NCBI GenBank assembly: GCA_049840735.1
Contig: JASGJN010000026.1
Location: 224,001 to 288,000, forward strand
Length of the DNA stretch: 64,000 nucleotides
Direction: 5' to 3'
Source: Anaeromyxobacter sp.
GTDB taxonomy: Bacteria; Myxococcota; Myxococcia; Myxococcales; Anaeromyxobacteraceae
Part shown: one piece after another, positions 3,684-52,650 of the stretch
Layout: each line of letters begins with the position of its first letter
How positions within the stretch are numbered: position 1 is the stretch's first letter
Made by a program: the position numbers and the translations under genes
The notes under the pieces: model-generated
The model's input: only the letters and a program-made list of their open reading frames with translations
What the model was told of the DNA's origin: nothing
Database searches by the model: none

Positions 3684-3937
3684 GGGGTCCTCCCTGAGTA
3701 GAACCGGCGCGGCGGCCGCGTGTGACGCGACGTCGCGCCGGGGCACTTCCGCTCGGGGCGTGGCCCCCCGGGGCCTCCGATCGGTCCTTGTAATCTCACG
3801 GATCGTGATGCTAGCCATCACCGTCTTCCTCCAGGGAGCAGGGCGGGGCAGATGGCCTGTGCACGTGGGAGCGGCTCGAGCCGGTGGGGCCGGCGCGGCC
3901 GGCGCGGTCGCGGCCGCGTCGGACGCGGGAGCCACCG

Positions 3938-5416
<1,479 letters not shown>

Positions 5417-5439: not shown

Positions 5440-5455
5440 CGGAAAGATCGTTCCG
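5440..5455. promoter_or_regulatory. Inverted repeat, candidate upstream activator site (bEBP binding)
   Basis: CGGAA-AGATCG-TTCCG about 110 bp upstream of the -24/-12 element; another CGGAA half-site at 5460. Confidence 0.5.
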
Positions 5456-5561
5456 CCCCCGGAACCGCGCTGCGCGCCCGCGCGGGCCCTCCCGCCGGCC
5501 TCCGTCCCGCGGGGCGCCGCGCTTCCCGCGCCTTTCAGCTGGACCGCGGCGAGCGGCGCCC

Positions 5562-5577
5562 GGGCACGCCGCGTGCT
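5562..5577 (+). promoter_or_regulatory. Sigma-54 promoter of the large operon
   Basis: GGGCACGCCGCGTGCT matches the TGGCACG-N4-TTGC consensus with exact GG-N10-GC spacing, directly downstream of a bEBP gene. Confidence 0.7.
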
Positions 5578-5617
5578 TCCGCCCGATCCACGCTTCACGG
5601 AGAGTTCGGGATGGAAC

Positions 5618-5866
5618 GTGGATGACCTCACCGGCCTGCGCGACGGATGGGTGCAGTTCAGGCTCCGGGACGCGTACCTCCCGGACGCACGGGACCTGTC
5701 CCTGCGCCTGCACGGCGAGGATCTCCTGCAGGGAAGGGTGGTCGGCGTCTCGGACAGCGGCACCACGGAGGCCGCCTACGTCGTCGTCCAGGTCGAGGGG
5801 ATCGGGGAGCTGATCGTCGTGCCCACCACCGGGATCCTGGCGCGGACGCCCGGGAGCACCCGCTGA
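5618..5866 (+). CDS. Small hypothetical beta-rich protein, first gene of the operon
   Basis: ORF VDDLTGLRDGWVQFRLRDAYLP...YVVVQVEGIGELIVVP with GC3-rich codons, just after the sigma-54 promoter. Confidence 0.6.
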   Translation: MDDLTGLRDGWVQFRLRDAYLPDARDLSLRLHGEDLLQGRVVGVSDSGTTEAAYVVVQVEGIGELIVVPTTGILARTPGSTR

Positions 5867-5917
5867 ACGGAGCCAACCGTGTACTCGCTTCGCCTTTCCG
5901 CACCGCAGTCCGTCGCG

Positions 5918-7664
5918 ATGGCCGTCGAGGGGGTCATCCGCGTGGCGCCCAGCCGGGCGCGCATCGACCGGCGCGAGCCCACGGTGGGGTTCACCATCTC
6001 CACCAACCGCCCCTTCGCCGAGCTGGTGGTGGCGGTCGACCCGGACCTCTTCCGCCCCGAGGCCGCGGCCCGGCGCACGCCGGCCACCTTCTTCGCCAGC
6101 CGCGAGCACGGGCTCTTGCGCGGCCCCGGCGAGCTCGTCTACCTGCTCCCTGCGGCGTTCGTGGCGGCGGCCGTCGCGGGCACGCCGCGCCCGACCCGGC
6201 TCTACTACCTGGCCATCGGCTACGACGACGAGCGCGGGGCCAACCCGCTCCACTCGGTCGAGCCGGCCCGCTGGCCGGCGGACCTCCCCTGGCTGGAGAA
6301 TCGCGGAGGACGTGCAGCGCCAGTCCATCGCGGCCTCGCTCGGGATCGCGCTGGCGCGGCTGACCCGGGGTCCGGCCCTGGCGCCGGAGGGCGCGCTGCA
6401 GGGCGGGGCGCTGGACGCCCCCGCCGCGCCCGGCGCGCCGCGGGTGGTCTGGCGCCAGGAGGCCTCGGGCACCCTGCCCGCCGCCCGCGTGGTGGCGCTG
6501 GAGGAGCTCGAGGACCCGGAGGGACGCGCCGGGGTGGCCGCGCCGGAAGGCGGAAGCTGGCAGGAGGACGGGCGCGAGGCGGCGCCGCCGGAGGAGGCCG
6601 CCCCGGACCGCGGCGCGGACGGGCACGCCGGGCCGCAGGCGGCCGCGGCCGACGACCTCGACTACGACGACGGCTACGGGCCGGAGGCCCGCGCCGCGGC
6701 GCTCGACAGCGCCTTCCCTGCCGGAAGCCCCGAGCCGGACGAGCTGCTGGACGAGGAGGCGCCGGAAGAGTCCGTCCAGGACGAGGCCGCCCCGGGTGAC
6801 GAGGCGCGCAGCGCCGGGGCGGGGGCCGCCGCCTACCGGGACGAGGCAGACCTGGCGCCAGCCGCCGAGCCGCCCCCGCTGCCGCAGGCGGCGCTCGATC
6901 GCGTGCTGGACGAGCTGATCCGCGGGCGCGAGGGCACGCTGCTGACGCTGGCGCGTCCCACCGAGCGGGACGGGCTCGCCTTCGGGGCCACCCAGGCCAC
7001 CCAGCGCTCCGGCGAGCTGGGCCGCTTGCTGGCCAGGCTGCGGGCGACCGACGGCGCCGGCTTTGCCCGGGTGTTCGGACCGGACGCGGAGGCGCTGCTC
7101 GCCACCACCGGCGCCGCGACCGAGGAGGCCCGCCTCCAGGCGGTGGGCGGGCAGGCCCTGGTCGACGAGCCCTGGCGGGCGCGCTTCGCCGAGGCCGGCC
7201 GCCACCCGCCCTTCGTGGAGGCGCAGCGCGCCTTCGCCCGGGACACGCTGCTCACGCCGCTGGTCCCGATCGCCCGCGACCTGGGGCTGGGCACCCGCGC
7301 CCTGGCGATGCTGGCCGCCATCGCGGTGGCGCGCGGCCCAGACGCGGGCCTCCGCTGGGCCCTGGGCGGCATCGGCCCCGGCGCCAGCGCGGCGCAGCTG
7401 CAGGCGGCGCTCGGCTCGCTGGGCGACGCCGACCTCGCCGCCTTCCAGCGCCGGCAGGGGCTCACGCCCAGCGGCGAGCTCGACCCGACCACCCACGCCC
7501 GGCTGCTGGCGGCGCTCCGGGCCCTCGGCGCCCGCGCGCCGGTGCCCACGCTGACGGCGCCGCAGGTGGCGCAGGCCTGGCTGCGCCAGGCGGCGCGCGA
7601 ACCCTTCCGCCACAAGCTCGAGAGCCTGGCCTCGAGCCCCGCCCTGGAGGACCGCGCCCTCTGA
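5918..7664 (+). CDS. Multidomain protein: unknown N-domain, acidic linker, lysozyme/chitosanase-like domain with peptidoglycan-binding motif (frameshift at ~6300)
   Basis: ORFs 5879-6799 and 6312-7664 join if GAATC at 6298-6302 is GATC (LE-IAEDVQRQ). GLAFGATQATQRSGELGRLL resembles muramidase-fold motifs; LAAFQRRQGLTPSGELDPTT matches PG_binding_1. Confidence 0.6.
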
Positions 7665-7698
7665 GGCGGGAGCCACGATGACCAAGGCGGGATCGAAC

Positions 7699-9082
7699 AT
7701 GGGCACAGGCCCGGCCGGCTCCGGCAGCACCTCCAGGCGCGAGCCCGCGCGCGGACCCGTGGCGCGCGGAGATCGACCGGCTGCTCACGGCCACGCCCGC
7801 GTTCACGCAGCTCGCGCCCGCCACGCAGCAGGCCATGCGGGAGGCCATGGCCAAGATCACCTCCTACCTGGCCGCCGATCCCGTGCCGGCGCAGGCCAGC
7901 GCCTGGCAGCTCGCGCCGGACCTGGGCGCGCTGCGGCCCGGCGGCGGCGCGGCCCCCGGCGCTGGCGCCACCGGCCCTGCGCCCGCGGCGCCGCCGCCGG
8001 GTCCCGCCGCGGCCCCGGGGGCCCCGTCCGGCGGCGGCGCGCCCGCAGGCGGCGGCGCCGCAGACCGCGTGGGCGGCGTGGCCCGCGCCACGCTGAGCGC
8101 GATCGACTTCCCCTCCTTCGTCGCCTCGCTCATCCAGGGCACCTTCCAGGCCATCGTGGACGCCTCCATCCAGCAGATGGAGGCCTACGCAGAGCTGCTC
8201 AAGAACGCGGCGCTGACCGTCGACGCGTTCATGAACGACAACGTCACCGACGGCCAGGCCCGCGACTACCTGGCCGACCGGTACGGCGGCGTCTTCAACC
8301 GCGACACCGCCGGAACCGCGCCGCGCCTGGCGGTCGCGCCCGGCGCGGGGGCGGCGGGGCTGCCCAGCTTCCTCACCGACCTGGGCATCTCCTCCGCGGG
8401 CGACCTCGACGACCAGGCGGTGGAGGAGACGGTCGTCCCGGCCACGCGCCGGATGCTGGCCGAGCAGCGGCAGCAGACCCTGGCGACGATGGTCCTCATG
8501 GGGATCAACCGCATCGTCGTCAACGACGGCGAGATCTCCGCCAAGCTCCAGTTCCACGTCGACGCGTCCGAAGCGACGGCCATGCGCTTCGACCAGACCA
8601 AGCAGAGCGGCATGTCCATGTCGGGGACGGCGGGGCGCAACCCGTTCTCGGCCCAGGGCATCATGGTCAACACCACCTCGCTCAACGCGCAGAGCGAGCT
8701 GAACGTCCGCGCCGACCTGGTCGGCAACGTGGTGGTCCGGTTCCGGAGCGAGACCTTCCCGCTGGATCGGTTCGCCGACTCGGCGGCCATCCAGCTCATC
8801 AACACGCGCGCCCGCGTGCCCGGCGGCGCGCAGGCCGCCGCGCCCGGGGCACCCGCCGCCGCGCCGCCTGCGGCCCCGGCCCTCCCCGGCGTCGCGGGGG
8901 CGCCCGGTGCGCGCCAGCCCCCGGCCGTCGCCACGCCCGCCCCCGCCCCGGCCGGCCCGGGGGTGCCTCCACCCGCCCCGCCGCCGCCCGCCCCGCCGGC
9001 GCAGCAGTCCTCCTTCCGCCCGTCGTCGCCGGTGGCCCAGGCCGCCCCCGGCGCGTCGGCCGATCCCTGGAGCCTGTCGTGA
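7699..9082 (+). CDS. Uncharacterised family A paralogue 1 (frameshift near the start; ORF track starts at 7835)
   Basis: In-frame upstream sequence EIDRLLTATPAFTQLAPATQQAM aligns with the N-terminal domain of the other paralogues. Core IDFPSFVASLIQGTFQAIVDASIQQMEAY, LATMVLMGINRIVV, FRSETFPLDRF. Confidence 0.8.
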
Positions 9083-9338
9083 ACCGCCCCGAGCTCGGCG
9101 AGGTGCTGGGGGCGCTGCTGGAGGCCGTGCTCAACGGCGGCGGCGCCGCCGACCCGGTCAGCGGCGCGGGCATCGTGGTGCACGAGGCGGACATCGAGCT
9201 CCCGCTCGAGGGTTACCTGGCCGTGGAGGGAGGGAGGCCCGTCCTCCGCACCGCCCCGCCGCAGACCACCATGCGGACCGGCTTCGACGCACCGTTGCAC
9301 CGCGGGCGCCTGCTCGTGGTCCTGGCCCCGGGCGAGTG
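9079..9338 (+). CDS. Small hypothetical helix-strand protein
   Basis: GTGA overlap with the upstream stop; MNRPELGEVLGALLEAV...IVVHEADIELPLEG...; its TGA abuts the next ATG. Confidence 0.7.
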
Positions 9339-10257
9339 ATGAGCGATGACACCTCCGCCTTCCTCGTCGAGGACTTCATCCACTCGGTGGCCGCCCAGCT
9401 CGACCGCGTGCAGGACGCCCTTCGCCTCAAGGCCGTCAACCGGCCGCTCACCTACGCGCTCAAGGACTTCTCGCTCGACCTGCACGTCTTCGCCGAGATG
9501 GACGCCGACGGGCAGGTGCGCTTCCGCACCGCCGGTCCCAACGAGGCGGGGGCGAGCACCGTCCGCCTGGCCTTCACCACCATCACCCGCCCCATGATCG
9601 AGGAGAACACCGTGTCCCTGCAGGCGGCCGCCGGCCCCAGTCTCGACGAGCTCGGGCTCGATCCCGCCGAGCGCCGGCGGCTGGAGCAGCTGGGCGTGCG
9701 CAACGCCGGGCAGCTCACGCGCCTGCAGCGGAGCGCCGGCGCGGGGACCATCCAGCGGCTGGCGCAGGTCCCGGCCGATCGCCTGCGCCAGGCGCTGAGC
9801 CGCGGGCGCCCCAGCCTGGACCGGATCTCCATCGTGCCCGGCGGTGGTACCGCCCCCTCGCCCTTGCCCGCGCCGCCCGCCGCCGGCCCGCAGCCGCCCG
9901 CTCCACGCCCCCCCACCCCACCGCCTGCCCCACCCGTCCGCCCGGGGCCCCGGCCGCCGGGCCCGGGCACCGTGGTCGGCCCGCCGGTGCCCGCCGGGCC
10001 GGGCGGGATGGTCCGGCCCGGCCTCGCGCCGCGGCTGCGGCTGGAGGGGCGGAACCTCCTGGGCGAGGGGCTGCCGCGGGCGCGCTTCAACGACCGGCCG
10101 GTGCCGATCGCGAGCGCCGACGAGGAGGCCATCGAGCTGGAGCTGCCGGAGACCGCGGGCGTCCTCACGCTGGAGCTGGCCGACGGCGAGACGCACCAGA
10201 ATCCCGGTGGAGCTCCCGCCCCCGGCCCCGACCGACGAGCTCTGGGGGACGCCATGA
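9339..10257 (+). CDS. Hypothetical protein: helix-strand N-domain, helical hairpin-like middle, Pro-rich linker, IPT/TIG-like C-domain (frameshift at ~10200)
   Basis: Starts MSDDTSAFLVEDFIHSVAAQLDRVQ. Reading GAATC 10199-10203 as GATC gives ...GETHQIPVELPPPAPTDELWGTP*, whose TGA overlaps the next ATG (ATGA 10254-10257). Confidence 0.7.
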
Positions 10258-11612
10258 GGCTCTCCGGCTTCCTCCAGCTCTGCCTGCGGCCGGGCGAGGC
10301 CCCGGCCCACGTCCCGGCCCACGTGGACGTCCTGCTCGGCGCGGGGCGGCCGGTGTCCCGGCTCGACGGCGGCCCCATCGACCGGGCGGTGGCGCGCCAC
10401 GGCGGCGCCTTCCGCGCGGCCAACGTCTTCCCCGCGCGCCGCTCCTTCCTGCGGGTGGGCGCGCAGCACCTGGGCTACGACGACGTGGAGCACGCGCTGG
10501 GGCTGTCGCGGACGCTGCGGATCGAGGTGGCCGAGTGGCAGCGGACCGAGGACGTCATCGCCGACCTGCGCGGCCTGGCGGCGGTGGAGGCGGTGCTGCC
10601 GGAGACGGTGGCGCTGGCCCAGGAGCTGGCGGCGCAGCCGGTGGAGGAGGCCCCGCCGGCGACGGGGTCGGACCGCGCCCGGGAGCTGGTGCGCGCGGCC
10701 GAGGCGCTGGCGCTGGAGCCGGGCGACGAGCGGGTCACGACCGCGGTGGTGGACACCGGGGTGGCGCTCGGCCACGCCGAGCTGCGCCGGAAGCTCCTGG
10801 CCGGCTACGACACGGTGGACATCGACCTGGACGCGCTGGAGGGGATGGCGCTGGTCGGGGACAGCCGCGGGCGGGACTTCAACCCGCGCGACGACGTGGG
10901 GCACGGCACCCACGTGGCGGGCATCATCGGCGCCCAGGGTTTCCGGGCCCCGCGCGGCCTGGGCGGGCGGGCGCTGGTGCTGCCGCTCCGGGTGCTGGCG
11001 GCGGCGGTGGCGCAGGTCAGCGGCCGCCGCATGGGCGTGGGCGGCCTCTCCGACATCGACTGCGGGCTCAAGGTGGCGTGCGACCTGGGCGCCAAGGTGA
11101 TCAACCTGAGCCTGGGGACGGCCGAGAGCGCCCTGACCCCGGGGCAGCCGCCGCCGCACGCCGCGGTGGTGCGCTACGCCGCCCGGGCCGGCTGCGTGCT
11201 GGTGGCGGCCGCGGGCAACAGCGGGCGGCGGGAGGCGTTCTACCCGGCCGCGCTGCCCGAGGTGATCGCGGTGGGGTCGGTGTCGGACGAGCGCGCGCCC
11301 TCGGCCTTCTCCACGCGTGGCCCGCACGTGGCCCTGGCGGCCCCAGGCGAGCGGGTGCTCTCGCTGGGGCTGAGCGGCCTCCGCCGCTCCACCGGCACCT
11401 CGCACGCCGCCCCCTTCGTGGCCGGCGCCGCGGCGCTGCTGGTGTCCCGGGCGCGCCGGCGCGGGCGCGACCTGGACGGCGCGGCCGTCCGCCGCCTCCT
11501 GACCGGCACGGCGCGCCGGCTGGAGGGGGAGCGCGAGGCGGTCGGGGCGGGGCTGCTGGACGCGGCGGCGGCCCTCCGGGCGCTGGACCGGGAACAGGAG
11601 CGCGGCTCATGA
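10254..11612 (+). CDS. S8 (subtilisin-like) serine peptidase with N-terminal prodomain, no signal peptide
   Basis: AVVDTG (Asp), HGTHVAGII (His), AAAGNS (oxyanion Asn), GTSHAAPFVAG (Ser). Confidence 0.92.
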   Translation: MRLSGFLQLCLRPGEAPAHVPAHVDVLLGAGRPVSRLDGGPIDRAVARHGGAFRAANVFPARRSFLRVGAQHLGYDDVEHALGLSRTLRIEVAEWQRTEDVIADLRGLAAVEAVLPETVALAQELAAQPVEEAPPATGSDRARELVRAAEALALEPGDERVTTAVVDTGVALGHAELRRKLLAGYDTVDIDLDALEGMALVGDSRGRDFNPRDDVGHGTHVAGIIGAQGFRAPRGLGGRALVLPLRVLAAAVAQVSGRRMGVGGLSDIDCGLKVACDLGAKVINLSLGTAESALTPGQPPPHAAVVRYAARAGCVLVAAAGNSGRREAFYPAALPEVIAVGSVSDERAPSAFSTRGPHVALAAPGERVLSLGLSGLRRSTGTSHAAPFVAGAAALLVSRARRRGRDLDGAAVRRLLTGTARRLEGEREAVGAGLLDAAAALRALDREQERGS

Positions 11613-13615
11613 CCGACCTACGGGTGCTGGCGGTGCTGCTGGGCGACGGGGAGGCGGCCTTGCCGCCCGACGCGGAGCGGACCGTCGTCGAGCTGCTCAA
11701 GGCCGCGCAGCGGCGGGACGTGAACGTCTGGCGGCGCATCAACCTGGCGCTGGGCAAGGGGGCCGTGCCCACCGGCGCGGACCGGGCGCAGGCGCGCCTG
11801 CGCCTGGCGCGGCTGGCGGTGGGGCTGCTGGCCCGCGCCCAGCTGGGCGGCAAGGCCCGGTCCTTCGTGGCCGCCGTGGAGGACGCGCTGCGCGACGAGG
11901 AGTCCGAGCGGCGCTTCCAGGCGGCGCTGGAGCGCGGGCTGCTCCGGCAGCTGCTCCTGACTCGAGCGGACGACGCGGTCGCCGGGCGCGCCGTCCTGGA
12001 GATGGTGGGCGGGTTCCTGCGGGTCTCCGTCCCGCCCACCGTACCCGCCCCACCGACCGGCGGCGACGACGGTCCACCCACCGAACCAACCCCACACGAG
12101 GAGGATGAGATGTCGTTCTACATGGACTTGCGCGGTCTGCCGCCCGAGCTCGGATCGCTGGAGAAGCAGAACGCGTACGTGGCGGCCGTGCGCGACCAGA
12201 TCCGCCGCATCATCGGCAACGTCGAGCCCAACGCGCTCGCCCACGCCGAGGTGGTGGGCAAGCTGCTCCTGGGCGGCCAGTTCCGGGCCGACAGCGGCTC
12301 CTTCCCGTCCTTCGTGAAGCGCGCCTACGACGAGCTGGTCGTGCCCTACGACGAGCGCGGCGGCCGCGACGTGACCGGCATCGAGGTGCTGGCGAAGATC
12401 GGGGCCGCCCTGGGGGTGGAGGGAGGCGAGGCGGCGGCGAGCGGCAGCACCAACGGCAACGGCCACTCCGGCGAGCGGCCCGTGGCCTACCAGCAGCTCG
12501 CCTTCATCTACGACGCGGTGGTCCAGACGCTCCCGGTCATCGCCCACGACGACCCGGGGCTGCGCGATCGCGTGGCGCGCGCCTTCCTGGACTACGCCTC
12601 AGGCGACCTGGGGAGCGACCAGCTCGACATCCCGGGCTTCGACCAGACGCTCGACCAGGACGTCGTCCCCGAGAACATGCTGGCGGTGGGCAAGGTGTAC
12701 GCGGCCTACCAGCTGGAGCAGCTCAAGCTCTTCGCGGTGGTGGACCGGATCGCCGAGCTCTGGCGCAACGGCCTGGTCCCCATCGGCAGCGACTCCGGCG
12801 GGCGCCTCCTCAACACCTTCTACTGGGACCGGGAGGACCGGCTCTCCGAGGGCAACCGCTTCGCCCACTACGCCCGGCTCTTCGGCGCCAAGGGCGCCGA
12901 CGTGAGCAAGGAGGTGAACGTCAACGCGCAGTTCGAGCCGCTCATGACGCGGTTCCTCACCAACGTCGCCCAGTACAAGCGGCTGACCGAGATGCAGGTG
13001 GTGAGCAGCGACCCGGCCCAGTCGCGGTCGCTGGTGAGCGAGAACGTGCGCAAGACCGGGCGCGAGCTGTCGGCCAACCTGTCCCTGTACGGCTGGGGCG
13101 CGACCCACTTCGACGCCAGCCGGATTGCCGGCCACGTCCGGGTGGCCTTCGACATCGTCAAGGACGCGCAGGTCCAGAAGGCGTTCGGCGCCACCAGCCC
13201 GTGGCAGGTGATCGAGCGCGTGGCCCAGCAGGAGTTCGGGGTGACCCCGAACATCGTCAAGTACCAGGCCATGGCCGCCTCCGGCCAGGAGATCATCCGC
13301 ATCCTGGCGGCGCAGCCGGCGGCGTTCGTGACCTCGCTGGAGGAGATCGACCAGGCCCTGAAGCCCGCCCCGCAGACGTTCGACAGCCTGGCCCGCCACG
13401 CGCTGGCCTGGCTCAGCGTCAACGGCACCACCACCGAGCAGCTGTCTCGCCTCTCGCAGCCGGTGGAGGCGGTGGCCTCGCCCTCGCTCCCGCTCCTCTC
13501 GCAGCCCACCGCGCCCACCAACGGCGCGGCCGGCCCGGACCTGGGGCGCCTGCGCGACATGGTGGCGGCGGGCCGGATGCCGTCCATGGACGAGCTCCGG
13601 GGGTTCATCCACTGA
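11609..13615 (+). CDS. Uncharacterised family B paralogue 1 (large helical protein; probable internal start at 12110)
   Basis: ATGA overlap with the S8 stop; strong GAGGAGG RBS before ATG 12110; C-terminal half aligns by eye with 15903-16763. Confidence 0.75.
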   Translation: MTDLRVLAVLLGDGEAALPPDAERTVVELLKAAQRRDVNVWRRINLALGKGAVPTGADRAQARLRLARLAVGLLARAQLGGKARSFVAAVEDALRDEESERRFQAALERGLLRQLLLTRADDAVAGRAVLEMVGGFLRVSVPPTVPAPPTGGDDGPPTEPTPHEEDEMSFYMDLRGLPPELGSLEKQNAYVAAVRDQIRRIIGNVEPNALAHAEVVGKLLLGGQFRADSGSFPSFVKRAYDELVVPYDERGGRDVTGIEVLAKIGAALGVEGGEAAASGSTNGNGHSGERPVAYQQLAFIYDAVVQTLPVIAHDDPGLRDRVARAFLDYASGDLGSDQLDIPGFDQTLDQDVVPENMLAVGKVYAAYQLEQLKLFAVVDRIAELWRNGLVPIGSDSGGRLLNTFYWDREDRLSEGNRFAHYARLFGAKGADVSKEVNVNAQFEPLMTRFLTNVAQYKRLTEMQVVSSDPAQSRSLVSENVRKTGRELSANLSLYGWGATHFDASRIAGHVRVAFDIVKDAQVQKAFGATSPWQVIERVAQQEFGVTPNIVKYQAMAASGQEIIRILAAQPAAFVTSLEEIDQALKPAPQTFDSLARHALAWLSVNGTTTEQLSRLSQPVEAVASPSLPLLSQPTAPTNGAAGPDLGRLRDMVAAGRMPSMDELRGFIH

Positions 13616-13646
13616 CGCCGCGGGGTGAAGGAGAAGGAGGGACGCC

Positions 13647-14687: not shown

Positions 14688-14696
14688 GGAGCGACC

Positions 14697-15890
14697 ATGG
14701 CCAGCCCTCCACAGCCGGTGTTGCCGCTCGTCCGCGAGGAGGTGAAGCGCCTCCTGGTGGGCGCGCGCTCGTTCCGCGCGCTGCCCGAGACGGAGCGCCG
14801 CGAGCTGGCCCGCAACATGGTCCGGATCGCCGAGTTCATCGTGGGGGGCGCCGACGGTGACACCACGCCCGCCGCGGCGCTGGTGGCGACCGGCCAGGCC
14901 GACGCGCCCCCGCCGCGCCCGCCCACGGCCTCCGGGGACATGAAGGACTCCGGCGCCGCCGCCGCCAGCGCCGGGGGCGCGGCCCTCGCCGACCTGGTGG
15001 GCAAGGTCGACTTCCCCAAGTTCGTCTCCGGGCTCATCGACGGCGTCTTCAACGCCATCGTCAACGCCTCCATCCAGCAGATGGAGGCCTACGCCGAGCT
15101 GGTGAAGAACGTGGCCAAGTCGGTGGACGAGTTCATGAAGGACAACGTCAGCGAGAACCAGGCCCGGGACTACCTGGCCGATCGCTACCCGGATCACCTG
15201 GAGGTGGACGCGAGCGGGGAGTCGCCGCGGGTGCGCGCGCGCCCCTCGGCGGACGCCGCCGCCATGCCCGACTTCTTCTCCGACCTGGGGCTGCCCGCGC
15301 CCGCCGGCGCCGTGGACGACGAGGCGCTGGAGGAGCAGCTGGTCCCGGCCGCGCGCAAGCGGCTGGCCATGGATCGCCAGCAGATGCTGGCCACCATGGT
15401 GCTCATGGGCATCAACCGCATCGTGGTGACCGACGGCTCCATCAAGGCCAGCGTGCTCTTCGACCTCAACACCCGCGACGCGGTCCAGCGGGCGCACGAC
15501 CGGACCCAGACCGCCACCTGGCACGACACCGAGACCACCAAGCGGCGCCCCGGCTTCTTCGGCTGGTTCTCCGGGTACACCACCACCAGCGACCGCAAGA
15601 CCGACTTCACCGTGCAGACGGTCACCAGCGACAAGGACGACTCGCAGTCCTCGGTCGACCTCAAGGCCAAGCTGGCCGGCGAGGTGAACGTCCGGTTCCG
15701 GAGCGAGACCTTCCCGCTGGAGCGCATGGCCGACCTGATCGCGCCGGACCAGCGCGAGAAGCTGCAGGGCCGGCTGCCCCAGCGCGCCGCCCCGGCCGCC
15801 CCGGGGGCGCCGGCGGTCCCGCCCCCGGCGGCGCCGGCCCTCCCTCCGCTGCCCGCGCCCGGCGCGGCGCCGGCCACCCCGAGGCGGTGA
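14697..15890 (+). CDS. Uncharacterised family A paralogue 2
   Basis: GAGGAG RBS; VDFPKFVSGLIDGVFNAIVNASIQQMEAY, LATMVLMGINRIVV, FRSETFPLERM. Confidence 0.85.
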   Translation: MASPPQPVLPLVREEVKRLLVGARSFRALPETERRELARNMVRIAEFIVGGADGDTTPAAALVATGQADAPPPRPPTASGDMKDSGAAAASAGGAALADLVGKVDFPKFVSGLIDGVFNAIVNASIQQMEAYAELVKNVAKSVDEFMKDNVSENQARDYLADRYPDHLEVDASGESPRVRARPSADAAAMPDFFSDLGLPAPAGAVDDEALEEQLVPAARKRLAMDRQQMLATMVLMGINRIVVTDGSIKASVLFDLNTRDAVQRAHDRTQTATWHDTETTKRRPGFFGWFSGYTTTSDRKTDFTVQTVTSDKDDSQSSVDLKAKLAGEVNVRFRSETFPLERMADLIAPDQREKLQGRLPQRAAPAAPGAPAVPPPAAPALPPLPAPGAAPATPRR

Positions 15891-15902
15891 GGCGAGGGGG
15901 CC

Positions 15903-16763
15903 ATGGTCCTGGGCGAGCTCCACCTGTCGGCCGCGCTCGACCTGCTCGAGCGGTCGCTGCCGCTCGCGCTGGGGGAGCACGACGCGCTGGTGGTGCCGCC
16001 GCTGCTGCAGGACAACCTGCCCTCCGCCGAGGCGCTGCAGGCGCTGGCGGTGCTCTACCTCCACGCCGAGCTGGAGGGGGCGGCGCTGGTGATCTGCGCC
16101 GAGGCGGTGGCCGAGCAGCGCGCCCAGCTGCGGGTCTCCGCCGCGCTGGCGGAGGCGCTCGACCGCTTCGCCGACCTGGCGCGCCGGACCTTCACGGCCG
16201 GGCAGCGCGAGCAGCTCTTCCAGCGGCTCTTCGGGATGGCGAGCACCGGGGTGGCCGGGCCGGGCCGCCCGGCGGCGGCGAACCACGCCTTCCTGGGGCA
16301 GCTGGCGGGCCTCTGCGCGGCCCTGGTCCAGCTGGCGGACGACCTGCGCCAGCCCGGCGCCCGCGGGCCCCGCCTGGCCACCGAGGAGCGCGTCCGCACC
16401 GCGCTGGAGCGGCTGCTCATCGGGCTGGTGCCGCACGCCGCCGGCGGCCTCCTGCCCTGGGCGGCCCGGCTCAACGCGCAGCTGGCGGCGGCCCGGGCCG
16501 TGATCGAGCACCCCGAGCTGGGGACGCTGCTGGGGGTGACCGGCGCGGCCGCGGTGCTGCGCGCGCTGACCGACGGCGCCGCGGTGGAGCTGGGCGTGGC
16601 CATCCGCCGGGGCCAGGCCGGCCACCGGCTGCTGGCGGCCTGCGCGCGGCTGGCCGAGCGGCTGCGCGGGCCGGGCCGCGTGGTCGAGCCCACCGACGCC
16701 ATCGTCCGCGACGCCGCCGAGTGGCTGGCAGGGTACGGCCTCCTGGCCGGGAGCAGGTCATGA
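15903..16763 (+). CDS. Uncharacterised family B paralogue 2 (short form)
   Basis: LAVLYLHAELE/QRLFG/NHAF/RVR/GHRLL blocks are collinear with VGKVYAAYQLE/ARLFG/NAQF/NVR/GQEII in 11609-13615. Confidence 0.75.
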   Translation: MVLGELHLSAALDLLERSLPLALGEHDALVVPPLLQDNLPSAEALQALAVLYLHAELEGAALVICAEAVAEQRAQLRVSAALAEALDRFADLARRTFTAGQREQLFQRLFGMASTGVAGPGRPAAANHAFLGQLAGLCAALVQLADDLRQPGARGPRLATEERVRTALERLLIGLVPHAAGGLLPWAARLNAQLAAARAVIEHPELGTLLGVTGAAAVLRALTDGAAVELGVAIRRGQAGHRLLAACARLAERLRGPGRVVEPTDAIVRDAAEWLAGYGLLAGSRS

Positions 16764-18469
16764 CCGCCGCCGCCCTGCGCGCGCCGATCCTGCCGGCCCC
16801 CTACGCGGCGCCGCCCCGCCCCGAGGGGCTGGCGCCGGGCGCGGCCACGCTGGCGCTGGTCGAGGCGCAGGTGCGCGCGCTGCTGGAGTCGAGCCCGGCC
16901 TACCACGAGGTGGCGCCGGAGGTCCGCGCGCAGCTCGACCGCGACCTGGTGAAGATCGCCGGCTACTCGGCCGAGCTGGTGCGCGAGGAGCTGTACCAGT
17001 CGCTCCGGCTGGGCCAGGAGCCCGTGCTGCTGCAGCGCACCACGGTGGAGGGCCCGGGCCTGCCCGGGAAGGCCCCGCCGCCCGCGGCGCACGCCGCCGC
17101 CGCCCCGCCCACCGCCCCGGCGCGGCGCCCCCGCCCGTCGCGGCCGGCGGCGCGCGCGCAGGAGCAGTTCAACCCCGACGCCGCCAACGCGGTGGGGCGC
17201 GTGACCGGGGAGACGCTGCGGGCCATCTCCTTCCCGACCTTCGTGGCCGACCTGATCCGCGGCACCTTCCAGGCCATCGTGAACGCGTCCATCCAGCAGA
17301 TGGAGGCCTACGGCGCGCTCCTGGCCAACGTCTCGCGCACCGTGGACCAGTTCATGGCCGAGAACATCTCGGACAACCAGGCGCGGGAGTGGCTGGTGCA
17401 GCGCTACCCGGATCACCTGCAGCTGCGCCGCGAGGGCACCCAGGCCACGGTGGCCCCGCGCGACGACGCCGGCGAGCGGCCGCCGCCCGACTTCCGCGGC
17501 GACCTGGGGCTGGCCGACGAGGTGGGGCTGGACGAGTCGGCCATCGAGGAGCAGCTGGTGCCGGCGGCGCGGCGCAAGCTGGCGCGCTCGCGCCACCAGC
17601 TGCTCGCCACCATGGTGCTCATGGGGATCAACCGGATCGTGATCACCGGCGGGAAGATCCGCGCCACCATGGGCTTCCACATCGACACCACCGACCGGCT
17701 GGCCCAGCAGCGCGCCACCGACCTGGACACCCGCGTGGCCGCCGCCGGCAGCTTCGGGTTCGGGCCCTGGTCGGCCTCGCTGTCGGCCTCCGTGGCCTAC
17801 GTCAGCTCGGAGCGGAGCCAGCGCGACAGCGAGATGAACGTCGAGGCCGACCTGACCAGCGAGGTCGACCTGCGCTTCAAGAGCGACTACTTCCCGCTGG
17901 AGCGGTTCGTCGATGGCGCCGGGATCAACACCATCCGGAACGCCACGGCGGTGCCCGGGTCCAACAACCCGTCCCCCGACGCCCTCACCCCCGGCGCCCT
18001 GCCCGACGCCAACCCGCCGCCGCGGCCGCGGCGCGAGCGGCCGGCGCGGCCGCCGCCGGGCGAGCTCCGGCCGATCGGCACGCTCCCGCCCGCGCCTGCG
18101 CCGCCCACCGCCCCCACGCCGGTGGCCCGGCCGCCGCAGCCGGAGGCCGCGCCCACGCCGCCGCCCCCGCCCGAGGCGGCGCCGGCCCAGCCGCCCGTCA
18201 CCGGCGCTCCCACCGAGCCGCCCGCGCCGGCCCAGCCGCCCGTCACCGGCGCTCCCGCCGAGCCGCCCGCGCCGGCCACGCCGCCGGTCACCGGCGCTCC
18301 CGCCGAGCCCCCGGCGCCGGCCACGCCGCCCACGGGCGACGCGCCGGCGCCGCCGCCCACCCCAGCCACGCCGCCGCCGGGCGGCGACGTCGCCCCCGCG
18401 CCAGTCACCGCCTCCCTCTGGCCCGCCTGGCCGGCCGGCCCCCACCCCTCACCCCGGATGGCGTCATGA
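16760..18469 (+). CDS. Uncharacterised family A paralogue 3 with long Pro-rich repeat tail
   Basis: ATGA overlap; ISFPTFVADLIRGTFQAIVNASIQQMEAY, LATMVLMGINRIVI, FKSDYFPLERF. Confidence 0.85.
   Translation: MTAAALRAPILPAPYAAPPRPEGLAPGAATLALVEAQVRALLESSPAYHEVAPEVRAQLDRDLVKIAGYSAELVREELYQSLRLGQEPVLLQRTTVEGPGLPGKAPPPAAHAAAAPPTAPARRPRPSRPAARAQEQFNPDAANAVGRVTGETLRAISFPTFVADLIRGTFQAIVNASIQQMEAYGALLANVSRTVDQFMAENISDNQAREWLVQRYPDHLQLRREGTQATVAPRDDAGERPPPDFRGDLGLADEVGLDESAIEEQLVPAARRKLARSRHQLLATMVLMGINRIVITGGKIRATMGFHIDTTDRLAQQRATDLDTRVAAAGSFGFGPWSASLSASVAYVSSERSQRDSEMNVEADLTSEVDLRFKSDYFPLERFVDGAGINTIRNATAVPGSNNPSPDALTPGALPDANPPPRPRRERPARPPPGELRPIGTLPPAPAPPTAPTPVARPPQPEAAPTPPPPPEAAPAQPPVTGAPTEPPAPAQPPVTGAPAEPPAPATPPVTGAPAEPPAPATPPTGDAPAPPPTPATPPPGGDVAPAPVTASLWPAWPAGPHPSPRMAS
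18181..18350 (+). repeat. 45-bp in-frame tandem repeat (3 copies plus a degenerate one) encoding PA(Q/T)PPVTGAP(T/A)EPPA
   Basis: Units start at 18181, 18226, 18271 and 18316. Confidence 0.85.
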
Positions 18470-19632
18470 CGAACCTCCCCGCGCCGCCCGAAGCGCTCCC
18501 CGGCCCGTTCTCCGCGCCCGCGAACCCGGAGGGCATCACCGCCACTCCCCAGGTGCTGGCGCTGGTGCGCCGCGAGGCCCGCGACCTGCTGGAGCAATCA
18601 GAGGCCTACCGCGGCCTCACGCCCGAGGACCGGCGCCGGCTGGCCTTCAACCTGGTGAAGATCGGCACCTACGGCGCCGAGCTGCTGCGCGATCAGTTCC
18701 TGCAGGCCCGGAAGCTGGGCCAGCGGCCGGTGCTGGTGGAGGCGGCCGCGGACGAGGCCCCCAAGCCCCCGCCGGCCGAGAACTTCGCGCCCCGGGCGGT
18801 GGACCAGGCCGGGCGGGTGACCCGCGAGACGCTCAACGCCATCGCCTTCCCGACCTTCGTGGCCGACCTGCTCAAGGGCACCTTCCAGGCCATCGTGGAC
18901 GCCTCCATCCAGCAGATGGAGGCCTACGTGAAGCTCCTGGAGAACGTGGCCAAGACGGTCGACCAGTTCATGGCCGACAACATCACCGACAACCAGGCGC
19001 GGGACTACCTGGCCCAGGGCTACCCGGAGTTCTTCCGGGTCGAGGTGGGGTCCGAGGGCGCGCGCCTGCGGGTGAAGGACACCGAGCGCGACCCGCCCGA
19101 CTGGAAGGGGCTCTTCGGGCTCAACGACGACGTGCCGCTGGACGACGACGCCGTGGAGAACACGCTGGTCCCGGCTGCGCGCCGGCAGCTGGCGCAGAAC
19201 CGGCACCAGATGCTCTCCACCATGGTGCTCATGGGCATGAACCGCATCGTGGTCACGAGCGGCCTCATCAAGGCCAAGATGGGCTTCCACCTCGAGGCGC
19301 GGGACGCGGCGGCCGCGGAGAGCGCCTCGCAGTTCGACTTCAAGCACGACATGCAGGCCTCGGCGGGCGGCGGCCTGGGCTCCTTCTTCGGCGGCCCCAG
19401 CTTCAAGGCCCGCACGTCGCTGGCCTACGTCAGCACGACCAAGCGCGGCAGCACCGACGAGATCAACATGGAGACCGACCTCACCGCCGAGGTCGAGCTC
19501 AAGTTCAAGAGCGACTACTTCCCGCTGGAGCGGTTCGCCAAGACGGGAGTGATCGCGCAGATCCAGCAGAACACCGCCAACCCACAGGCCAACGCAGCGG
19601 CGCCGCAGAACGCGGCCGTCGCCGGGAGGTGA
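18466..19632 (+). CDS. Uncharacterised family A paralogue 4
   Basis: ATGA overlap; IAFPTFVADLLKGTFQAIVDASIQQMEAY, LSTMVLMGMNRIVV, FKSDYFPLERF. Confidence 0.85.
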   Translation: MTNLPAPPEALPGPFSAPANPEGITATPQVLALVRREARDLLEQSEAYRGLTPEDRRRLAFNLVKIGTYGAELLRDQFLQARKLGQRPVLVEAAADEAPKPPPAENFAPRAVDQAGRVTRETLNAIAFPTFVADLLKGTFQAIVDASIQQMEAYVKLLENVAKTVDQFMADNITDNQARDYLAQGYPEFFRVEVGSEGARLRVKDTERDPPDWKGLFGLNDDVPLDDDAVENTLVPAARRQLAQNRHQMLSTMVLMGMNRIVVTSGLIKAKMGFHLEARDAAAAESASQFDFKHDMQASAGGGLGSFFGGPSFKARTSLAYVSTTKRGSTDEINMETDLTAEVELKFKSDYFPLERFAKTGVIAQIQQNTANPQANAAAPQNAAVAGR

Positions 19633-19639
19633 GCGAGCC

Positions 19640-21415
19640 ATGCAGTCACGTCCGAGCACGCAGAACGGGAACGGCCACGCCAACGGCCATGGGCAGCCCT
19701 GGACCGGCTGGATCTCGCCGCCGCCGGCCCCGTCCCCGGGCGCCGCCGGCGCCGGGCTGGAGCGGTGGGCGGAGGAGGCGGCCGCCCCGCACCCGGTCCA
19801 CCTGGTGGCGGGGGACGGCCGGTCGCCGCTCTTCCTCGAGTCCGCCGACCCCGGCACCGGCCGGTGGCAGGACGCCCACCTCACCGACCCGGCCGCCCTC
19901 GATCCCGGGGCCCTGGCCTTCCTGGTGGCGCGCGGGCTGCTGATCCTGCCCGGCGCGCCGGGCGGCGAGCTCCGCGCCCGGCTGCAGGGGCGCCTGGTGG
20001 TGCCGCGCGACCTGGCCACGCGCGTCGGCCCCATCCCCGTCTGCTTCATCGTCATGGGCAACCACAACGCCTTCGACGGCACCGCCGAGATCCAGAACTT
20101 CGCCGGCTACGACTACCTCCAGCAGGCGCTGGCGGACCTGGGCGTGGCCAGCTGCTCGGTGGACACCAACCTCTGCAACGCCTTCGACCTGCCCATCCGC
20201 TCGCGGGCGGAGATGGTGCTCGCCACCATGGAGCTGGTGGGGCGTACCGCGCCCGCCGCCATCCGCCCCCGGCTGGACTTCACGCGCTGCGGCCTGGTCG
20301 GCCACTCCCGCGGCGGCGAGGCGGTGGTGATGGCGGCGCTCCTGGCGGCGGACCGCTCGCTGCCGGTGGACGTCCGCTGCGTGGCCTCCATCGCCCCCAC
20401 CGACTTCTCCAGCGCCTTCACCGGCGGCGCGGTGGGCGGGCGCGTGCCGGTGCCGCTCCGGCTGGACGGGGCGCGGCGGTACCTGGTGCTCCACGGCGCC
20501 CACGACGGCGACGTGGCGAACGTGCGGGGCAACGGGTTCGGCCTGTACGACCGCGCCACCTGCCCGAAGACCATGATCTTCGCGCGCGGCCTCACCCACA
20601 ACCGGTTCAACACCGTCTGGAACGAGTGCGCCGACTACGCCGACGGGCGCCACGTCTTCGTGGACGACCTCACCTGCCGGACCCGCACCGGCACCTTCGA
20701 CGAGCGGATCTTCGCCGCCGTGGTCCACCGCGAGTACGCCAGCTTCTACGTCGGCGCCCTGGTGCGGCGCACGCTGCTGGGCGACGCCTCCGCCGAGCAG
20801 GTCCTGGTGGGGGTGGAGGCGCCCACCGCGGCGCGGCTGCGCCAGTCGCCCGGGCTGCAGGGGCCGGCCGCCTCCATCCAGTGGACCGTGGGCGACCGGG
20901 TCACGGTGCAGGAGTTCGAGGGCGCCGGCCCCTTCCCGGCCACCGGGGGGCGGGTGGAGGCGGCCGCGACCGGGCGGGCCACGGTGCCGCATGCCACCCA
21001 GGCCTACGTGGCCACCGCCGCGGGGAACCGCATCCGCGTGGAGGTGCCCAGCGGCCGGCGGAACGTGGTGGGGCGGCGCGAGCTCACCTTCCGGCTCACC
21101 TCGATGATCCCCGTCACCAGCGAGGCGGCCATCGCGCGGGCGCCGCTGCCGGACTGGGAGGTGCGGGTCATCACCGGGAGCGGCACGCGCGTGGCCCGCG
21201 CGCGCGACGCCGATCGCCGCGGCCTGCGCGAGCCCAACCGGCCCTTCTTCCACGAGGTCGACGGCCCGCTCAACGTGACCAAGAACGCCTTCGACACCGT
21301 CAGCATCCCGCTCTCGGCCTTCGGCTCCACCGCCTGGAACGACGTCCAGGCCATCGAGTTCGAGGCCCGCGGCGGCGCCTTCCCGCTGATCGTCGACTCC
21401 ATCGCCTTCGTCTGA
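19640..21415 (+). CDS. Alpha/beta hydrolase (lipase/chlorophyllase-like) with C-terminal beta domain
   Basis: GLVGHSRGGE nucleophile elbow, HGAHDGDV (Asp), THNRFNTVW (His). Confidence 0.8.
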   Translation: MQSRPSTQNGNGHANGHGQPWTGWISPPPAPSPGAAGAGLERWAEEAAAPHPVHLVAGDGRSPLFLESADPGTGRWQDAHLTDPAALDPGALAFLVARGLLILPGAPGGELRARLQGRLVVPRDLATRVGPIPVCFIVMGNHNAFDGTAEIQNFAGYDYLQQALADLGVASCSVDTNLCNAFDLPIRSRAEMVLATMELVGRTAPAAIRPRLDFTRCGLVGHSRGGEAVVMAALLAADRSLPVDVRCVASIAPTDFSSAFTGGAVGGRVPVPLRLDGARRYLVLHGAHDGDVANVRGNGFGLYDRATCPKTMIFARGLTHNRFNTVWNECADYADGRHVFVDDLTCRTRTGTFDERIFAAVVHREYASFYVGALVRRTLLGDASAEQVLVGVEAPTAARLRQSPGLQGPAASIQWTVGDRVTVQEFEGAGPFPATGGRVEAAATGRATVPHATQAYVATAAGNRIRVEVPSGRRNVVGRRELTFRLTSMIPVTSEAAIARAPLPDWEVRVITGSGTRVARARDADRRGLREPNRPFFHEVDGPLNVTKNAFDTVSIPLSAFGSTAWNDVQAIEFEARGGAFPLIVDSIAFV

Positions 21416-21423
21416 GGGATCCC

Positions 21424-22884
21424 ATGAACGAGCCCATCACCGTCCGCTTCGAGCAGCTGGACCGCCCCGTCTACCCCGACTGCCGCGTGCGCGTGGTGGT
21501 CCGCACGCCCATGTCGCGCCGGGGCGGCGCGAAGCTCACCGCCCGCGTGGGCGGGCAGGAGCTGCAGGGCATCATGCTGGACCCGCAGGGGCAGGGGTTC
21601 GTGGGCTACCTCCCGCGCGCGCCGTCGGCCGGCGAGGCGCTGGTGCTGCGGCGCGGCGTCCACCTGGTGGAGACCGGGGTCCGGTTCCAGCCGCCCGCCG
21701 GCGGCCGCGGCGCGGGCATGGACGACGAGGTGGGCTGGGGCCAGGCGGCCGCGCCGGCGCCCACGGCCAGGGCGGGGGAGGGCGCGCCGGTCGCCTTCGA
21801 TCGCTGGGAGCGCGAGGTCCGCGCCGCCGCCGCCACGCCCCTCTCCAACCCGCGGCCCATCGCGCTCGCGGCCTTCCATCGCGCGCCCGGCGTGGACTAC
21901 CGGCTGGAGACCAGCGGCGGGGCGGCGGTGCTCACCGCCGTGACCACCCGCATCGGGGAGCGGTACGTGCCGCCGCGGCCGGAGGTGGTGACCGTCGGTC
22001 CGCGCGGCGCCGGGGGGCCGGCCGGCGCGGTCCCGCGGGTGCTGGAGGGCTTCCGGCCCGCCCACGTCGCCCAGCGGCCGCTCCCGGCGCCGCTGCCGCG
22101 CGAGCTGGAGCGGCTGGACGTGACCTACCGGCGGGGCGGGGCCCGGCCGCCGGCGCTGGTGGCCAGCTGGAACGGGCCCGAGCCGCTCCACGTCTTCGCG
22201 CCCGACACCCGCCGCGTCTTCTCCGACACGGCCTACCCCTGGAGCGCCTGCGGCCTCATCCCCGAGGTGGGCGCCTCCGGCGCCATGGTCGGCCCGCGCC
22301 ACATGCTCACCGCGGCCCACGCGCTCAACGTGACGGGCGGGAGCCTGGCGGCCATGAGCTTCGTCCCGCTCTCCTTCGACGGCCACCCGCCGCCCTTCGG
22401 CTCGGCCCAGGTGACGCGCGCCTACTACTTCACGCGCACCACCACCCGGTCCATCACCGACCAGCAGATCGCCTTCGACTTCGCCGTCTGCGTGCTGGAC
22501 CGGCGGCTGGGCGACCTGACCGGCTGGCTCGGCTCGCGGGTGTACGCCAGCGCCTGGAACGGCGGCGCCTACTGGGCGCACGTCGGCTACCCCTTCGACG
22601 TGGCCGGCGGCCGGCGGCCGGTCTTCCACGGCCCCGGCACCGTCGACTCGCTGGGCGACGAGACCATCGGCGGCCGCACCGCCTACCGGCTGCTCCACCG
22701 GAACGACATCGAGCCGGGGGACTCCGGCGGGCCGTTCTTCGGCTGGTGGAACGATCGGCCCTACGTGATCGGGGTGCAGAGCGCGCAGGACGGCGCGACC
22801 ACCCCCCCGTTCACGCCCAACCTCGCGGCCGGCGGTGAGCCGCTCGTGGAGCTCATCCGCCACGCCCTGACGGCCAACCCGTAG
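21424..22884 (+). CDS. Trypsin-like (V8/glutamyl endopeptidase-type) serine protease with unknown N-terminal domain
   Basis: LTAAH, DFAVCVL, GYP, GDSGGP. Confidence 0.9.
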   Translation: MNEPITVRFEQLDRPVYPDCRVRVVVRTPMSRRGGAKLTARVGGQELQGIMLDPQGQGFVGYLPRAPSAGEALVLRRGVHLVETGVRFQPPAGGRGAGMDDEVGWGQAAAPAPTARAGEGAPVAFDRWEREVRAAAATPLSNPRPIALAAFHRAPGVDYRLETSGGAAVLTAVTTRIGERYVPPRPEVVTVGPRGAGGPAGAVPRVLEGFRPAHVAQRPLPAPLPRELERLDVTYRRGGARPPALVASWNGPEPLHVFAPDTRRVFSDTAYPWSACGLIPEVGASGAMVGPRHMLTAAHALNVTGGSLAAMSFVPLSFDGHPPPFGSAQVTRAYYFTRTTTRSITDQQIAFDFAVCVLDRRLGDLTGWLGSRVYASAWNGGAYWAHVGYPFDVAGGRRPVFHGPGTVDSLGDETIGGRTAYRLLHRNDIEPGDSGGPFFGWWNDRPYVIGVQSAQDGATTPPFTPNLAAGGEPLVELIRHALTANP

Positions 22885-35475: not shown

Positions 35476-39413
<3,938 letters not shown>

Positions 39414-47035: not shown

Positions 47036-47038
47036 CGG

Positions 47039-48511: not shown

Positions 48512-48520
48512 GGCGGCTCC

Positions 48521-52147: not shown

Positions 52148-52626
52148 CGCGAACCTCCCCGGTTGAGCGCGGCGGCGGCCAGCAGGCGCGCCCGCGACGG
52201 CGCCTTCCGCCGGCGCGCCGCCAGCGCCAGGAGCGCCAGGAGGGCGACCGCGCCCAGCGCGCCCATGAGCTCGAAGCGCCACGCGCCGCCGGCGGGGGCC
52301 GCCTGCGTGGCCTGGACCAGGAAGGCCGCCAGGTCGGCCCGCTCCTCCGGCAGGAGGGCGCGCCCGTCGTAGAGCGGCGTCATGGTCGGGAAGGGGAGCG
52401 CCTCCAGCACCGGGTCCAGGTCCGCCGCGGCCATGCCGCCCAGCGCGGCGGACAGCTCCGGGCCCAGCGACGCGCCGAAGGCCGGCCCCTGGCTGCCCAG
52501 CGCGTGGCAGGCGCCGCAGGGCGGGCCGCCGGCCTGGAACGGCCGCTCGCCGATGAAGAGGCTCCGGCCGGCGGCGGGATCGCCGGCGGCCAGGAGGAGC
52601 GCGACGGACAGCGCGGGGAGCGTCAC
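52144..52626 (-). CDS. Membrane-anchored monohaem cytochrome c (NarC-like)
   Basis: Signal peptide, CGACH, FPTMTP (axial Met), C-terminal TM; overlaps the narG start. Confidence 0.8.
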
Positions 52627-52650
52627 CGGACGTACCTCCAGTCAACCAAG

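Follow-up and report, generated by a model that had tools for sequence, protein, structure and literature searches.

A widespread operon of predicted hairpin paralogues, a subtilisin-like protease and exchangeable, mostly wall-lytic cargo in Anaeromyxobacter sp.

Pepco proteins (synonymous with Trypco1/2) are described as forming 9-10-mer beta-barrels that become toxic once a protease removes their Pro-rich C-terminal tail (Evans et al. 2025, bioRxiv 2025.11.14.688446), and Trypco1/2 are reported as defined next to trypsin peptidases (Kaur et al. 2020, PMC7159879). Here, we analyze a 14-gene operon in a 64,000-nucleotide stretch of an Anaeromyxobacter sp. genome (contig JASGJN010000026.1, positions 224,001 to 288,000; the whole stretch is termed the window) that appears to work partly like these Pepco-protease modules yet departs from them in having no sensor. 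It encodes four family A proteins (A1 to A4), two family B proteins (B1, also g7, and B2, also g10), a subtilisin-like S8 protease, the proteins g1, g2, g4, g5 and g8, and two enzymes of a variable cargo slot (g13 and g14). Open PMC papers and bioRxiv preprints, covered mostly by titles and abstract openings, with subscription papers and supplements (including that of Evans et al.) outside this scope, contained no description of the operon, which is apparently an undescribed multi-component system.

Results

The operon is a real, conserved and widespread gene block. Scanning 185,579 species genomes with a pattern yielded 193 A-encoding stretches, the best 80 of which gave 58 loci; removal of seven overlapping loci left 51, of which 36 were long enough for a gene-order test. 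The order g2-A1-g4-g5-S8-B1-g8-A2-B2-A3-A4 recurs in at least eight phyla. S8-B1-g8-A(1-2)-B2-A-A was kept in 33 of the 36 testable loci, the exceptions being a fragmented locus, a truncated one and a divergent one with three A2 genes, and g2-A1-g4-g5 lies upstream of the S8 block in every locus whose flank reaches that far. Conserved A, B and S8 neighborhoods had been set as a check beforehand by a first-pass annotation of the window, made from the sequence alone, and gene order indeed proved strict across phyla. Among the best 80 of the 193 stretches, hosts comprised Actinomycetota, alpha-, beta- and gammaproteobacteria, Acidobacteriota, Myxococcota, Planctomycetota, Thermodesulfobacteriota, Chloroflexota-related lineages and Dormiibacterota. 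Complete copies occur in the cultured strains Kribbella lupini, Actinoplanes sp., Ramlibacter cellulosilyticus, Methylibium rhizosphaerae and Celeribacter arenosi, and family A as a whole comprises 1,739 clusters at 50% identity.

Distribution is patchy. The operon was present in one of 40 relatives and in none of 24 same-genus genomes, and a phylum survey found 11 of 301 genomes positive, including the source genome (6.67 Mb, 94% complete); seven of the 11 carry a single divergent A. The closest relatives of the window copy in a quick A tree are Polyangiaceae/Myxococcales records. Plasmid copies were found in four records, and a search of phages recovered no copy. The full operon resides on a Burkholderia pyrrocinia megaplasmid, and a Tolypothrix/Microchaete plasmid (L074, 9349-20567) carries the series hydrolase, S8, peptidoglycan-binding domain, B, A, a 721-aa protein, a 436-aa protein, g4 and g5, with no g8. 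Patchy, horizontal spread of this kind (0/24 same-genus genomes; plasmids) fits conflict systems. A-g4-g5 is the minimal unit that persists, as seen in loci L080 (9350-11718) and L081 (9308-12602), which have no S8, B or cargo nearby. Two further layouts were noted: locus L082 resembles the Tolypothrix plasmid version, and the g5 homologue in L081 is fused to a solute-binding SBP_bac_5 domain.

In the window, 14 co-directional genes on the + strand (5573/5618-22884) follow a gene for a bacterial enhancer-binding protein (bEBP; 3884-5416, +), as first annotated. Apart from the A paralogues, none of the 13 genes has a second copy in the genome. The first gene, g1 (5618-5866; 82 aa from GTG 5618 or 97 aa from 5573), is a small orphan open reading frame (ORF) outside the conserved core, with no homologue in the fetched loci and a weak DUF6212 match (E 0.0015, below cut-off). 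Gene overlaps proposed earlier hold at 9079, 11609, 16760 and 18466, but the ATGA overlap at 10254 is readable only with an indel near 10190, because g5 as sequenced runs in frame into S8; all 35 homologous loci have a g5 stop of their own before S8. This is one of three apparent single-base indels, the others lying near 6305, where g2 is split (a single ORF in homologues), and near 7700, where the A1 start is out of frame. The region has 72-80% GC, and the phase of GC at third codon positions supports every frame and shifts three times, once within g2, once where A1 starts and once where g5 ends. Elsewhere in the window, aroA (EPSP synthase, 62206-63497) is split into two ORFs with a break at 63153, and a gapA ORF (38417-39136) holds the C-terminal domain only. 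As homologues are intact and housekeeping aroA is also split, the frame breaks in the operon are probably assembly errors; the aroA split, partial gapA and three operon indels together suggest an indel-prone assembly.

The four A genes are paralogues, as had been proposed, with 40-47% identity to A2. They encode A1 (7678-9082; shortest hairpin class, with a C-terminal motif and a DPW tail), A2 (14697-15890; longest class, duplicated in some loci), A3 (16760-18469; hairpin tip FGFGPW, long Pro-rich tail) and A4 (18466-19632). The absence of a characterized counterpart for families A and B stood up in Pfam, NCBIfam, PADLOC, PHROG and PDB, none of which gave a match for either. An AF2 model of A4 as representative predicts an N-terminal helical hairpin, a Pro/Ala linker, a helix of ~50 residues, a small insertion, a further helix and a long beta-hairpin with strands at 259-280 and 331-351. 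No MACPF- or aerolysin-type match was obtained, full-length A structure searches being dominated by the N-terminal helices. A hairpin pattern that captured 76 sequences, part of the A proteins, gave segment lengths of 85-89 residues in A1, 93-97 in A3, 93-100 in A4 and 98-129 in A2, with 23-28% Ser/Thr; the hairpin turns of A2-A4 are aromatic, and aromatic content at the hairpin center is 10-12% in A2-A4 versus 5% in A1. A quick tree built from 76 A cores sorts the proteins across phyla by operon position and not by host: positions 1 and 4 each occupy one side of a branch (support 90 and 87), position 3 is weak (32), and position labels change 11 times compared to 47.6 after shuffling. This position-wise grouping across phyla suggests old, specialized subunits that travel as a block.

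A distant likeness of A to DUF2589 (PF11655) was detected. With a four-sequence DUF2589 profile, hhalign aligned the families end to end at a probability of 58-67 (E 5e-5 to 1e-4), with a score of 35 compared to 20.5 for the best column-shuffled profile, and DUF2589 was the Atlas lead for A at 0.80. The DUF2589 Pfam model was not among the 25 families listed for 119 A members, nor did it match the four window A proteins. A can be modeled as a long helix plus a beta-hairpin segment of ~90-105 residues that is distantly DUF2589-like. Two genomes of the phylum (L067-L070) also have DUF2589 genes side by side as paralogous pairs, a smaller parallel to the A cluster. The small helix-strand protein g4 (9079-9339), a member of the invariant A-g4-g5 trio, has 37 distinct homologues, occurs in single-A loci too and has no Pfam match.

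The third member of the trio, g5 (9339-10257), contains a Trypco2/Pepco-like N-domain, a middle helical domain, a Pro-rich linker and an IPT/TIG-like C-domain. Trypco2 matches at E≤1 were obtained for 26 of 38 g5 members (best 0.0018). The window copy scored below cut-off (E 0.03-0.1), and the homologue in L080, also with TIG, passed it (28.3 versus 24.2 bits). In all 35 loci holding both genes, g5 immediately precedes S8; two single-A loci have no S8 nearby. The S8 protein (10254-11612; Peptidase_S8 E 2.5e-36) comprises a prodomain and a catalytic domain with an intact triad (D167/H217/S383) and has no signal peptide. Its homologues of ~430-490 aa conserve D/H/N/S and are likewise stand-alone, with no sensor fusion (STAND, FGE or others). 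PADLOC 2.0 returned only generic subtilase and weak IetS matches for S8 and none for the other 14 proteins.

Although B1 and B2 share only 23% BLASTP identity (E 0.23), their profiles match with an hhalign probability of 99.9 (E 1.7e-32), in line with the paralogy proposed earlier. B1 (11609-13615) has an AF2 model at pLDDT 84 that is all helical, with no solved-structure match; B2 (15903-16763) is a short paralogue. Three features had escaped the first-pass annotation: a nested start in B1, the predicted fold of g8 and the polymorphism of the cargo slot. B1 begins with a divergent 167-aa N-extension followed by a nested in-frame start (GGAGG...ATG at 12110) that appears conserved at the sequence level. 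A Shine-Dalgarno (SD)-like site precedes the equivalent Met in 28 of 35 B1 homologues versus 29 of 367 control Mets, a contrast somewhat inflated because the best Met was chosen per 28-residue window. The Met lies behind a 49-201-residue extension in 27 of the 35 (24 with an SD-like site), five are annotated from it (four with SD) and three have no Met in range. Between homologues, the extension is 17% identical versus 35% for the core. Nested in-frame starts recall phage scaffold genes.

For g8 (13647-14687), no Pfam or PDB match was found at the sequence level. Its Atlas predicted model aligned to a DMATS cluster with a TM score of 0.78 over 297 of 300 residues, both sides being predicted, and feature matches of 0.94-0.95 pointed to DUF5838, Trp_DMAT and PTase_Orf2 clusters. 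These data support an ABBA/PT-barrel (aromatic prenyltransferase) fold with an invariant Arg/Glu core and make g8 a candidate prenyltransferase. Across 99 sequences, R168, R215, R228, R237, R263 and R302 are 95-100% conserved, and a single Tyr column reaches 81%. DUF3467 was found in 28% of members of an Atlas structural-neighbor cluster of g8, and DUF3467 genes lie between the bEBP gene and the operon in several betaproteobacterial loci (L073, 1079-1486; L012, 16667-17020). A1 (9060-9082), g5 (10230-10257) and g8 (14670-14687) end in conserved Trp-bearing, DPW-like C-termini after Pro/Ala-rich linkers; these could be docking or modification sites.

The core is followed by a slot that, judged from sequence, holds polymorphic, signal-peptide-free and mostly peptidoglycan-cutting cargo. 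The gene that follows A4 belongs to a single mosaic hydrolase cluster in 35 of 36 loci, and modules are shuffled between loci. The proteins are mosaics of 700-1500 aa that differ between loci; among 45 scanned of 58 listed, 38 contain a hydrolase family and 25 contain Amidase_3. Other domains include M15/VanY, Muramidase, GH25, Amidase_2, Phage_lysozyme2, NlpC/P60-C92 and DUF2272, as well as papain-like C70, trypsin, PLD and PETase-like domains. Amidase His/Glu motifs are mostly retained, and a crude hydropathy test found a hydrophobic N-terminus in none of 71 cargo/g2 entries. In the window, the slot is occupied by a PETase-like alpha/beta-hydrolase, g13 (19640-21415; PETase E 1.6e-6), and a trypsin-like protease, g14 (21424-22884; Trypsin E 8.5e-5). 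The catalytic motifs reported earlier were recovered in S8, g14 (H299/D352/S434) and g13 (GHSRG, S223), but only S8 belongs to the core: tblastn matched the trypsin gene in one of 60 loci and the hydrolase gene in two. The g13 module also terminates larger cargo proteins in L010 and L022, and the N-domain of g14 recurs in the second cargo of L010, a protein with M15/VanY peptidases at its end. Upstream, g2 (5879-7664) combines a conserved N-domain, an acidic linker, a GH46/lysozyme-like domain and a peptidoglycan-binding domain (PG_binding_1 E 3.5e-4); GH46 exceeded the cut-off in the L065 homologue (E 1e-6), and a Burkholderia copy (L073) has an amidase polyprotein at this position that is headed by the g2 N-domain (E 2.6e-20). 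In a divergent myxobacterial subtype, a protein of ~900-1080 aa with no Pfam match is encoded between the last A and amidase cargo (L008, 8157-10886; L066, 13501-16527; L085, 6235-9210; L087, 6391-9627).

A linker motif, [AGS][QRH][AGS][LMFYW][AGS], derived from cargo and evaluated against local shuffles, appears common to cargo enzymes and A subunits. It occurred 70 times in 50 cargo/g2 proteins (26.7 expected, 2.6-fold), and a 4-residue form was found 24 times just upstream of module starts (10.9 expected). It was likewise enriched in A linkers (20/145; 4.5 expected), A1 tails (8/24; 0.2 expected) and g2 linkers (6/8; 1.0 expected), depleted in A cores (2; 11.5 expected) and absent from g5 tails. 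In the A proteins of the window itself, it is poorly represented. Small-x-small-hydrophobic patterns of this kind fit subtilisin preference.

Control of the operon looks transcriptional and not mediated by a fused phage sensor. The bEBP (Pfam Sigma54_activat E 3e-62, HTH_8), which adjoins the operon in several other loci, is its likely activator. The GG-N10-GC promoter suggested for the window was recovered as a candidate sigma-54 -24/-12 site (5562-5576, +) at 8/10 consensus positions, but this motif alone is not significant (shuffle p 0.10). Upstream regions of five other bEBP-linked loci match the consensus at 9-10/10 positions (p 0-0.025), a sixth, taken as bEBP-linked from the same-family locus L052, at 9/10 (p 0.065) and a seventh at 7/10. 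Sigma-54 control is, however, lineage specific, with BTAD, LuxR or OmpR-type regulators in other loci, which have no near-perfect sigma-54 sites. This contrast suggests that expression is conditional and transcriptional. Neighboring genes in the window include a membrane protein that fuses phospholipid methyltransferase (PEMT), PAP2 and Lgt-like domains (27653-29614, -), an ORF of ~940-980 aa with no Pfam match at E 1e-5 (35476-38427, +) and a respiratory nitrate reductase cluster (44481-53138) with molybdopterin, Fe-S and delta subunits, an MFS transporter and an Rrf2 regulator.

Discussion

We tentatively propose, at a little under an even chance, that the gene products assemble in the cytoplasm into a heteromeric beta-barrel, matured by S8, that brings lytic enzymes to a cell wall. 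Once the operon is switched on transcriptionally, here by sigma-54, its subunits would be made together in the cytoplasm, where the helix plus beta-hairpin units of A1-A4, g4 and the g5 Pepco domain may co-assemble into the barrel. Long Ser/Thr-rich hairpins would form the stem, with aromatic tips entering a membrane. S8 would cut at the shared linker motif, freeing A of its tails and N-terminal helical caps and separating cargo polyproteins into single enzymes; B1/B2 could serve as a scaffold or as chaperones, and g8 could be an accessory modifier that perhaps adds lipid to the products. The channel would then admit amidases, muramidases, peptidases, lipases and proteases to a cell wall. The first-pass suggestion of a protease-matured assembly with lytic enzymes thereby gains indirect support from the Pepco/Trypco2 link, the position-specific paralogue clades, the hydrolase cargo slot and the linker motif.

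Several observations weigh against this proposal. The pore, oligomer, cleavage and target are all inferred. A, g4 and g5 have no profile similarity to one another, and it is topology that groups them as a single structural unit; the A4 model has a pLDDT of 77 and a pTM of 0.51, with low confidence at residues 282-329 including the hairpin tip; hairpin beta-amphipathicity is weak (mean z -0.5 in A1, 0.5-1.2 in A2-A4); and the DUF2589 link, from four sequences, lies below confident probability. B has no assigned function, its named homologues all being 'hypothetical'. The motif was defined after cargo inspection, its reversed 5-residue control was also somewhat raised (41 versus 24.7), only 20 of 145 A linkers carry it, its loose form in A linkers was no better than the reverse (55 versus 54) and it occurs at none of 36 S8 prodomain junctions. 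Neither a route for export nor an immunity gene was found.

An elaborated version would be a complement-like weapon in which four or five specialized hairpin paralogues and a Pepco ring assemble in order into a long beta-barrel, armed by a dedicated subtilisin that cuts polymorphic hydrolase polyproteins at a common linker code, while the freed ends receive a lipid from the prenyltransferase-fold enzyme, giving a membrane anchor independent of Sec and Lgt, and wall-lytic enzymes are threaded into other bacteria. Such a new secretion or injection class across at least eight phyla is, in our judgment, unlikely in this full form. As for the final target of the proposed barrel, we lean modestly toward neighboring cells, reached after the producer bursts, over the producer alone: polymorphic cargo and horizontal spread favor attack on neighbors, and the missing export and immunity genes leave some weight on pure self-lysis and a non-pore particle.

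Pure programmed self-lysis, following holin-endolysin logic without a phage, would have the barrel open the inner membrane of the producing cell itself, whose wall the hydrolases would digest, during development, biofilm formation or stress-induced death. We regard this as rather unlikely. Cargo without signal peptides, the lack of a visible immunity gene, occurrence in both monoderm Actinomycetota and diderms, and transcriptional rather than sensor control all suit it, yet one endolysin would suffice for this purpose, while the cargo is mosaic, 700-1500 aa long and locus-variable, including PLD, C70 and trypsin, and the patchy, horizontal spread of the operon fits conflict systems. To much the same degree improbable is a non-pore tube, fiber or cage of A, g4, g5 and B that stores or displays hydrolases, with the motif serving as a loading or docking peptide. 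The bare S8 prodomain junction, the weak hairpin amphipathicity, the long Pro-rich tails and the scaffold-like nested start of B1 agree with such a structure; the Pepco/Trypco2 homology of g5 points instead to a barrel pore, the A2-A4 turns are aromatic, and no capsid, sheath or Reb family was matched.

Anti-phage abortive infection by an elaborate Pepco-protease module appears very unlikely. The g5-S8 adjacency corresponds to a described defense layout, distribution is patchy and in L073 the gene after the operon has a cyclase domain, but S8 carries no fused sensor and the operon no conserved one, PADLOC finds only a generic subtilase model, the neighbors are not defense islands and control looks transcriptional. 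A cyanobactin-like pathway making a small prenylated product from A precursors is barely credible despite the pairing of S8 with a PT-barrel and a weak PatA/PatG match (E 1.5e-24; TIGR03895, 86.7 bits, far below the cut-off of 421), since A cores are conserved folded domains and not hypervariable, g8 is missing from Tolypothrix and other single-A loci, and the loci have no conserved precursor or heterocyclase genes and no YcaO or transporter genes in the core.

Whatever its mode of action, the locus presents a 10-11-gene core whose order is the same in Actinomycetota, Pseudomonadota, Acidobacteriota and Myxococcota, together with an exchangeable slot for lytic cargo, and a conserved core with variable cargo is the route by which new secretion and conflict systems were recognized. 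It offers a functional context for DUF2589-like proteins, and may extend Pepco pores beyond sensor-linked phage defense. In addition, g8 is a candidate prenyltransferase acting on proteins, and new peptidoglycan hydrolases could be drawn from the cargo slot.

Compared to known systems, the operon resembles Pepco/Trypco2-protease modules in placing a Trypco2 gene directly upstream of a serine protease in low-complexity C-terminal tails and in a plausible protease-gated beta-barrel. It differs in its stand-alone S8 with no fused sensor and in a Pepco domain fused to further domains. In addition to wall-lytic cargo, a PT-barrel protein and the two helical B proteins, it has four or five hairpin paralogues of much greater size. 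A appears to share with DUF2589 a colinear N-helix, strand, Ser/Thr-rich hairpin, final strand and Pro, a GWGPF/FGFGPW-type hairpin turn and the occurrence as adjacent paralogues, and is set apart by its N-terminal helical hairpin, an insertion of ~70 residues and Pro-rich tails. The predicted fold and the invariant Arg and Glu of g8 recall ABBA prenyltransferases (DMATS, NphB, PatF/PagF), although one conserved Tyr column replaces the four-tyrosine shield described for DMATS enzymes (PMC7973389).

Operon protein scans agreed with the earlier exclusion of type VI secretion systems (T6SS) and extracellular contractile injection systems (eCIS), as well as tailocins: sheath, tube, baseplate and spike families are absent. 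Phage_sheath_1 was also not found in the 94%-complete source genome, with control genomes positive, and no RebB-family (R-body) protein was found in the operon or source genome, a search in which control genomes gave no match either. eCIS/tailocins, T6SS, Tc-toxin lysis cassettes and R-bodies share with the operon a large regulated gene set, signal-peptide-free polymorphic cargo and probable release by lysis, whereas sheath, tube, baseplate, VgrG, holin and Reb families set them apart from it. By analogy only, the membrane attack complex with lysozyme also combines class-specific hairpin paralogues with a protease-triggered pore that admits a wall-lytic enzyme; in contrast, the operon has no detected MACPF homology, is bacterial, would be assembled in the cytoplasm and encodes its cargo alongside the putative pore.

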